NCBI RefSeq assembly: GCF_003334385.1
Contig: NZ_QOWN01000205.1
DNA from: Escherichia coli
GTDB taxonomy: Bacteria; Pseudomonadota; Gammaproteobacteria; Enterobacterales; Enterobacteriaceae
Reading direction: 5' to 3' (one strand)
Length of the DNA: 324 nucleotides
Position 1 is the stretch's first letter, and every line of letters starts with the position of its first letter. Below, piece after piece: positions 52 through 70 of this stretch. The translations under genes and the position numbers were made by a program. A model generated the notes under the pieces. It saw only the letters and a list, made by a program, of their open reading frames with translations. It did not search any database and was not told where the DNA came from.

Positions 52-70
52 AATGAAAACAGTTCTCATT
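52..70. repeat. 19-bp imperfect palindrome AATGAAAAC-a-GTTCTCATT (candidate operator)
   Basis: Seen directly in the sequence: 9-bp arms around a central A at position 61, pairing at 8 of 9 positions (A57 against C65 is the mismatch). It sits 24-42 nt upstream of the ATG at 94, inside the AT-rich leader. The inverted repeat itself is certain; the confidence given is for it being a functional protein-binding site. Confidence 0.3.

Follow-up and report, generated by a model that had tools for sequence, protein, structure and literature searches.

The 324-nucleotide (nt) stretch of Escherichia coli DNA studied here, referred to as the window, contains at positions 52–70 an imperfect palindrome that is probably a Fur box, located on the promoter of a minus-strand small RNA (sRNA) gene of the Esr41 family in the late region of a lambdoid prophage. 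We take this from the DNA sequence. Established in the present study are the sequence of the palindrome and its score on a matrix of E. coli Fur sites, its position relative to conserved promoter hexamers, and the homology of both the promoter and the RNA to Esr41. The palindrome, AATGAAAACAGTTCTCATT, is composed of two arms of 9 nt each, AATGAAAAC and GTTCTCATT, around one central A, and 8 of the 9 arm positions are complementary. It begins 42 nt and ends 24 nt upstream of the ATG at position 94 that opens a DUF1378 open reading frame (ORF) of 64 amino acids (aa), and it overlaps a TTGTCA sequence at 69–74 as well as the ATG at 53–55 of a short upstream ORF. All of this had been described in a first-pass annotation of the window, which suggested an operator for a dimeric transcription factor in front of the small-protein gene, and was reproduced by our own reading and by a scan of the sequence.

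The minimal site for one Fur dimer comprises 19 bp in a 9-1-9 arrangement, and the centre coordinates of strong sites have been given by Chen et al. 2007 (PMC2189734). Window 52–70 has the geometry of an E. coli Fur operator (9-1-9, or at least a 7-1-7 core) and is predicted to bind one dimer on the grounds of its matrix score, its identity to the bfd site and the recurrence of the same 19-mer in Shewanella. The weight matrix was built from 18 published E. coli K-12 Fur sites in the 9-1-9 frame and their complements, which were fetched after conversion of the coordinates of Chen et al. to NC_000913.3; 17 of them are backed by a footprint or a gel shift, the 18th being that of bfd. On this matrix the window site scores 22.1 bits, in the middle of the range of the experimentally proven sites (21.8 ± 3.1 bits when each known site is left out in turn, range 17.4–28.4). 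The consensus AATGATAATnATTATCATT (9-1-9) is fitted by the individual K-12 sites at 14–17 of 18 positions and by the window site at 14, the same value as for the proven fhuA, fepA-fes, exbB, bfd and fecA sites. The Fur box of K-12 bfd (AATGAAAATAGTTCTTATT) is identical to the window site at 17 of 19 positions. None of 2000 shuffles of the window reached 22.1 bits; the exact tail probability of this score is 2e-8 to 1e-6 per position, or about 2–3e-4 per window, and random 8/9 palindromes of the same composition attain such a Fur score with a probability of 1.4e-4. Within the 18-kb stretch of prophage the window site alone exceeds 9 bits, the runner-up scoring 8.6 bits. All 13 predicted sites of 12–26 bits that were tested by Chen et al. 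2007 (PMC2189734) were shifted by Fur.

The sequence thus points to Fur as the binding factor, which the first-pass annotation had called unknown after finding no match to the Fur consensus; its statement that the palindrome does not fit the consensus sequences of CRP, LexA, FNR and TyrR holds. Fur was missed because the classical 19-mer GATAATGATAATCATTATC was used, the best fit of which lies 3 bp out of register at 55–73 with 13 of 19 positions matching. This is a caution for motif matching in general, as the classical Fur consensus in the wrong register hides a good site.

An exact scan with AATGARAACNGTTYTCATT through one genome per species of about 100,000 species gave at least 120 matches, as compared to a chance expectation of about 17–35, and these were spread over many phyla including genomes of more than 70% G+C. 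When 10 ORFs located just downstream of such matches were sampled and scanned with NCBIfam, 7 matched metal-homeostasis families, namely Bfd, a TonB-dependent siderophore receptor, a Fur-family regulator, DHB-AMP ligase, AztC, AztA and a ZigA-like zinc GTPase. One further ORF matched phosphonate- and thiamine-type binding-protein models weakly and is read as FbpA-like. The remaining 2 small ORFs had no NCBIfam match; we tentatively read them as FeoA, each being followed by a putative FeoB ORF. In Shewanella, bfd is preceded by a 19-mer that reads exactly as the reverse complement of the window site. Judged by the genes that it precedes, the 19-mer class is an operator class of Fur-family regulators. 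The motif recurs across species but not within the 18 kb of prophage, where no other copy was found at 3 or fewer mismatches. In some of the genomes (L220, L237, L242, L286, L289, L299 and L312, which are Bacteroidota and other metagenome-assembled genomes) the exact 19-mer AATGAAAACGGTTTTCATT recurs as part of a longer stretch that is itself conserved, taatcccagaaccagcgg..., and may thus mark a conserved element or gene of these lineages.

The same 19-mer class precedes zinc genes in Actinobacteria (those for AztC, AztA and the ZigA-like GTPase), where it is presumably read by Zur. The window site might accordingly serve another dimeric regulator, either a member of the Fur family such as Zur or a phage-encoded repressor. 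We regard this as a rather distant prospect: the score derives specifically from E. coli Fur sites, the E. coli Zur box GAAATGTTATAnTATAACATTTC differs from the window site, and the second copy of the motif that is usual for a phage repressor is missing from the 18 kb of prophage.

The second line of evidence for a Fur box is its position. On the minus strand the palindrome spans the last base of a -35 hexamer, TTGACA (75–70), the entire 17-bp spacer and the first base of a -10 hexamer, TTAAAA (52–47). The promoter of Esr41 has the form TTGACA-17-TTATAT-6-G(+1), and the window aligns to it column for column with the same -35 hexamer, the same spacer length and the -10 hexamer at the same position, 11 of the 17 spacer positions being identical; the two promoters are homologous. 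The 26 aligned family sequences, genuine Esr41 included, show no variation in TTGAC, at the T/A/A positions of the -10 hexamer or in the terminator, and the distance from TTGACA to the DUF1378 ATG is fixed in all variant classes but one. An alternative -10 hexamer, TAAAAA at 51–46, would have a spacer of 18 nt. The palindrome overlaps this promoter as a Fur operator would, the minus-strand promoter itself being a prediction. Because the dyad lies in the spacer between conserved hexamers, it is placed within an sRNA promoter that is directed away from the small-protein gene.

Two side observations concern this region. Around the predicted start, in columns 30–46 of alignment A1 (window approximately 33–50), two interchangeable modules occur, ...AAAAAACCGATATACGAAAG and ...AGAAATGATTGATGTCGAAAG; as both are found between flanks that are otherwise identical, mosaic recombination is suggested. 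A second small dyad, ACCGT-A-ACGGT, is present at window 76–86 between the sRNA -35 hexamer and the start of DUF1378 and is broken in most relatives by an A for G at window 78.

Of the operator originally suspected, the 19-bp dyad thus remains as the minimal unit for a Fur dimer, while the small-protein promoter as its target does not. TTGTCA at 69–74, which had been taken for a -35-like element, is the reverse complement of the perfect minus-strand -35 hexamer TTGACA; used as a -35 hexamer it would place the -10 hexamer on the start codon, and no sigma-70-like promoter of the + strand was found in the gap before DUF1378. The gene for DUF1378 resides within a late operon downstream of the antiterminator gene Q, and in lambda biology such an operon is read by antiterminated polymerase. 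A role of Fur or of another factor in control of the + strand genes (DUF1378, DUF826 and the lysis genes), be it at a local promoter or as a roadblock to late transcription, is for these reasons very unlikely. What speaks for it is proximity: the site lies 24–42 nt upstream of the DUF1378 ATG, and no more than 18 nt separate the sRNA -35 hexamer from the start of DUF1378, so that a single bound protein could affect both strands.

The third line of evidence is the RNA itself. Positions 1–42 of the window (minus strand, predicted start at approximately 40–42) represent the 5' half of a predicted Esr41-family sRNA of about 80 nt, as indicated by Rfam, local alignment and a covariance model. The RNA is predicted to extend about 40 nt beyond the left window edge to a terminator, CCGCCAGC-N13-GCTGGCGG-CUUUUUUU, on the minus strand of L001 at 8997–8961 (window -39 to -3). 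The stem of this terminator is paired in 98% of alignment cells, its U-run tail can also be given as CTTTTTTT, and it lies 7 nt past the stop codon of the esterase gene and thus outside the window; read from the + strand, the hairpin is not followed by a U-tract. An Rfam scan of the window alone gave no match, and the sRNA emerged after 40 nt had been added on the left. All 74 positions of the Rfam model for Esr41 (RF02676) were then aligned on the minus strand (L001 9034–8960) with 20.5 bits and an E value of 0.78, which is below the gathering score of 102 bits. Local alignment to the true Esr41 locus gave a score of 34 versus a shuffle maximum of 27 (0/2000), with 24 of 28 positions identical over the seed UUCUCCAU...CCUCC and the 5' arm of the terminator. 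Conversely, a covariance model made from 21 variants of the locus, Esr41 not being among them, recovered true Esr41 with 29.5 bits (E 1.5e-5). Seed and terminator are thus shared, and detection is reciprocal.

Repression by Esr41, an sRNA of the SpLE1 island of E. coli O157, is known for cirA, chuA and bfr, and its target set is RyhB-like (PMC5286369). The core that pairs with cirA, UUCUCCAU, is kept in the window sRNA, and the duplex predicted with cirA has -27.9 kcal/mol, a value reached by 1.6% of shuffles; for Esr41 and cirA -34.8 kcal/mol is predicted (0/500 shuffles). A crude duplex test with bfr was uninformative, even for Esr41 itself. In summary of this comparison, the window RNA resembles Esr41 in promoter, RNA layout, seed and terminator arm, and differs from it in the 5' hairpin, in genomic context and in the strength of the Fur-like site, the promoter of Esr41 having Fur-like sites of 13.9 and 9.8 bits. 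Another site of 20.0 bits, TATTATAATAATTATCATA, is found in SpLE1 (L082 1709–1727) about 135 nt past the Esr41 terminator and before a hypothetical gene. In view of these Fur-like sites (20.0, 13.9 and 9.8 bits) the neighbourhood of true Esr41 may also respond to iron.

If Fur binds to the window site, as we assume, the centre of the box would be at about -20 from the predicted start at window 40–42, provided that the promoter fires there. In the presence of iron, Fe-Fur would occupy the sRNA promoter and exclude RNA polymerase, so that binding would mean repression. Upon iron limitation the block would be released and the sRNA of about 80 nt would be made, as is the case with RyhB, and it might then act on iron genes in the manner of Esr41. 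Of 363 predicted Fur clusters 303 overlap sigma-70 promoters, and repression by occlusion has been argued (Chen et al. 2007, PMC2189734). On this model the prophage sRNA is probably switched on by iron starvation. The closest parallel in arrangement is ryhB of E. coli K-12, where likewise a single strong 19-bp Fur site (AATAATAATCATTCTCATT, 26.3 bits) covers the core promoter of an Hfq-type sRNA gene, centred at -15. In contrast to ryhB, the sRNA of the window is unrelated in sequence, is prophage-borne and antisense in a late operon, and its regulation is predicted. The bfd-bfr box of K-12 resembles the window site in sequence and the Sakai Sp5 variant of it even at 18 of 19 positions, but is chromosomal and precedes a protein-coding iron-storage operon.

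How far the Fur box extends among relatives can be read from the variants of the locus. The common variants score within the range of known Fur sites, although the symmetry of the palindrome falls from 8/9 complementary arm positions in the main class to 7/9 in two common variants: 24.6 bits were obtained for a change of the innermost C to T (reverse complement AATGAGAATTGTTTTCATT), 19.6 bits for the Sakai Sp5 class, 19.2 bits for the AATAAAAAC variant and 18.4 bits for the L051 variant. Altogether 177 fetched copies score at least 17.4 bits. Distant relatives do not: Esr41, at the same position, has the above-mentioned 13.9 bits, the L058 class 9.1, L088 5.8, L078 1.2 and L022 0.8 bits, and the scores of PasA/C, EcOnc52 and EcOnc33, which are antisense sRNAs discussed below, are negative. 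Since Fur range is kept in the common variants and lost in the distant relatives, the Fur box is a property of the dominant prophage sub-family and not of the slot as a whole.

These low scores are one of several findings that weigh against a Fur box. The TTAAAA hexamer is a poor match to the -10 consensus and was missed by a promoter scanner. Secondary overlapping Fur sites at offsets of 3 or 6 bp are not present, and the rest of the window scores at most 1 bit; clusters of overlapping sites are common in Fur operators but not obligatory, and single-site clusters exist (Chen et al. 2007, PMC2189734, Table 4). No mention of Fur control of Esr41, EcOnc or Pas sRNAs was found in searchable papers, and Tree et al. 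2014 list neither an Hfq peak nor an EcOnc entry at the Sakai Sp5 copy. The idea of Fur was tested only after the cross-genome matches had been seen and is thus post hoc. In the main class the whole intergenic region is conserved to a similar degree as the palindrome, and covariation of the arms in the 26 aligned promoters was not above that of shuffles (63/500).

Conservation and symmetry also bear on a simpler explanation, by which the symmetry is fortuitous and the palindrome is an AT-rich spacer of an sRNA promoter that has been conserved by recent common descent, no protein operator being involved. The first-pass annotation had rated the statistical support for the bare palindrome as modest and had named arms that are conserved and co-vary as a unit as the mark of an operator. 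The former estimate was right: 3.3% of dinucleotide shuffles of the window hold a palindrome of this quality (arms of 9 nt separated by 1 nt, no fewer than 8 of 9 positions complementary), 26% do so if any gap of 0–10 is accepted, and the surrounding 18 kb of real prophage DNA contain 6 such palindromes at gap 1 and 64 at gaps 0–10. Bare palindrome symmetry is weak evidence for an operator. As for the arms, the number of complementary positions ranges by class from 2 to 8 of 9, which is not the behaviour of a unit. Outside the common classes it amounts to 6/9 in L058 and L088, 5/9 in L078, 4/9 in L022, 3/9 in Esr41, 4/9 in PasA/C, 2/9 in EcOnc52 and, counted by hand, 3/9 in EcOnc33. The arm proximal to the -35 hexamer is the least conserved part of the promoter and is lost without compensation in L022, L058, L078, Esr41, PasA/C, EcOnc52 and EcOnc33 (2–6/9), and close relatives conserve the entire intergenic region equally. 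The lack of covariation and the poor conservation of the arms across the family at first led us to read the palindrome as chance symmetry. This was revised after the motif scan and the Fur test. A score of 22.1 bits is expected in about 3e-4 of windows and is rare among palindromes of equal symmetry; chance would also have to account for the near-identity to a real Fur site, that of bfd, for the identical sequence before bfd in Shewanella and for the gel shifts of all tested predictions in this score range. Chance symmetry is therefore unlikely in our opinion, and the remaining alternatives, even when taken jointly, are distinctly unlikely as well.

The gap between the esterase gene and the lysis genes is a slot for antisense sRNAs in other prophages too. 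PasA and PasC of enteropathogenic E. coli (EPEC) are antisense, Hfq-bound sRNAs of this slot (PMC8550237, Table S6), located between the esterase and holin/lysozyme genes (preprint of Zhu, Shabalina and Storz), and EcOnc52 and EcOnc51 in O157 Sakai are antisense, Hfq-bound sRNAs in the same slot. EcOnc33 of Sakai prophage Sp6 was detected by Hfq-CRAC and by Northern blot as a band of about 71 nt; it occupies the same slot and has a TTGACA-N17-TTAAAA promoter, as found after a coordinate shift of +142 that was verified for Tree et al. 2014 on Esr41/EcOnc14. Esr41, PasA and EcOnc33 are expressed, Hfq-dependent RNAs of about 70–80 nt. The window sRNA shares with PasA and PasC the antisense orientation and the position directly 3' of the sialate esterase gene, and with these two and EcOnc33/51/52 the intrinsic terminator, the slot and a TTGACA promoter. 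It differs from them in that sequence similarity is weak or absent and in that none of them has a Fur box. Local alignment to PasA and PasC is at shuffle level (86/2000 and 83/2000), and the covariance model gives 10.9–16.9 bits. Identity with PasA or PasC is ruled out by the sequence, synteny alone being shared. The svsR sRNA (PMC12803456) is unrelated and is located at the 3' end of cI. In a class of viral loci (L026/L028) an unrelated insert replaces the Esr41-like gene in the same intergenic slot; it carries a terminator-like hairpin of its own, GGCCAGCGCC...GGCGCTGGC followed by a T-run, and lacks TTGACA at the usual distance.

In strain 2018-166 the window lies inside the late region of a lambdoid prophage of the Stx type. 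The order of genes is antiterminator Q, three tRNAs, a sialate esterase of the SASA family, a gap of 139 nt, DUF1378, DUF826, holin and lysozyme. E. coli chromosomes contain copies of the window that are 100% identical to it, and weaker matches go down to 80% identity. Matches occur in about 1,000 of 5,426 complete E. coli genomes (a median of 2 places in a positive genome) and in 306 phage records, mostly of Stx-converting phages. The intergenic region, often located beside stx, was counted about 2,200 times in approximately 980 of the 5,426 genomes. Two tandem copies of the STnc100 sRNA (L001 6061–6266 and 6544–6753, + strand, 141 and 166 bits) sit between the phage tRNAs and the esterase gene and match the PasD/STnc100-esterase-sRNA layout of Zhu et al. 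2026. A strong terminator-like hairpin of the + strand with 12 pairs and a T-run (L001 9614–9642) is found inside the late operon, between DUF826 and holin.

On the + strand, the window encodes the DUF1378 small membrane protein of the phage late operon at 94–288 (64 aa; ORF and RefSeq annotation) and the start of the DUF826 gene at 314–324, which is cut by the window end (RefSeq annotation). The upstream ORF at 53–97, read from the sequence, has 14 codons (MKTVLIVNRNGKKL*), and its stop codon overlaps the DUF1378 ATG as ATGA. It is probably not a gene: a Shine-Dalgarno sequence is missing, and in the L022, L088 and L078 classes its start codon reads ACG or ACA. Compared with the Sakai Sp5 copy, 3 of 4 substitutions in it are synonymous. 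The palindrome is itself transcribed with the late operon, 24 nt before the start codon of DUF1378, and could in principle fold into a hairpin in the late mRNA and thereby influence how the DUF1378 message is translated or how stable it is. We give practically no weight to this idea. A loop of 1 nt is impossible, the predicted folding energy is -1.2 kcal/mol (z = +0.24, with 107 of 200 shuffles folding as well), and compensatory changes do not occur. Repeats inside and just after the DUF1378 gene (186–195/224–233, 242–250/271–279 and 217–225/303–311) comprise one inverted repeat of 10 nt with 90% complementarity and two exact direct repeats of 9 nt, CCGGAACAA and GAGAAAATC. Terminator-like matches on the minus strand were noted at window 229–213 and 277–259.

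Fur-like sites are not confined to this locus in phage DNA. In 1.2 Mb of fetched phage sequence 39 further sites of at least 17.4 bits were found (e.g. L189 786 and L190 9166), among them AATGATAATGGTTATCATT in five copies and one located at the start codon of stx1A, TATGAAAATAATTATTTTT. A weak Fur-like site of 11.4 bits is present at the AsxR locus (L086 2672–2690, the AsxR/EcOnc27 region of Sakai Sp5), AsxR being an anti-sRNA that controls the haem oxygenase chuS. The stx1 promoter of Stx1 phages was reportedly described by Calderwood and Mekalanos in 1987 as iron-regulated and Fur-controlled. The stx1 element is similar to that of the window as a Fur-controlled element in the late region of the same phage group, for which our matrix finds a strong site at the stx1A start, and differs in position and in its target, which is a toxin gene and not an sRNA.

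As a wider interpretation we tentatively propose, and consider quite conceivable, that lambdoid prophages of the Stx type encode an Esr41-family sRNA under repression by Fur, as a phage-borne functional analogue of RyhB. Such an RNA would be on in an iron-poor host, would reprogramme cirA, chuA and bfr and might alter the sensitivity to colicins and phages via receptors; the box would have arisen within the sub-family, either anew or by improvement of a weak ancestral site. If this is true, a horizontally acquired riboregulator would be wired into the core iron regulon of its host, and the iron signal of the host would reach a widespread family of prophage sRNAs. It would explain the transcriptional input of Esr41-type sRNAs, which is not described in searchable papers, along with their RyhB-like targets. 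The late region of Stx-type phages would then contain a second iron-regulated element besides stx1.

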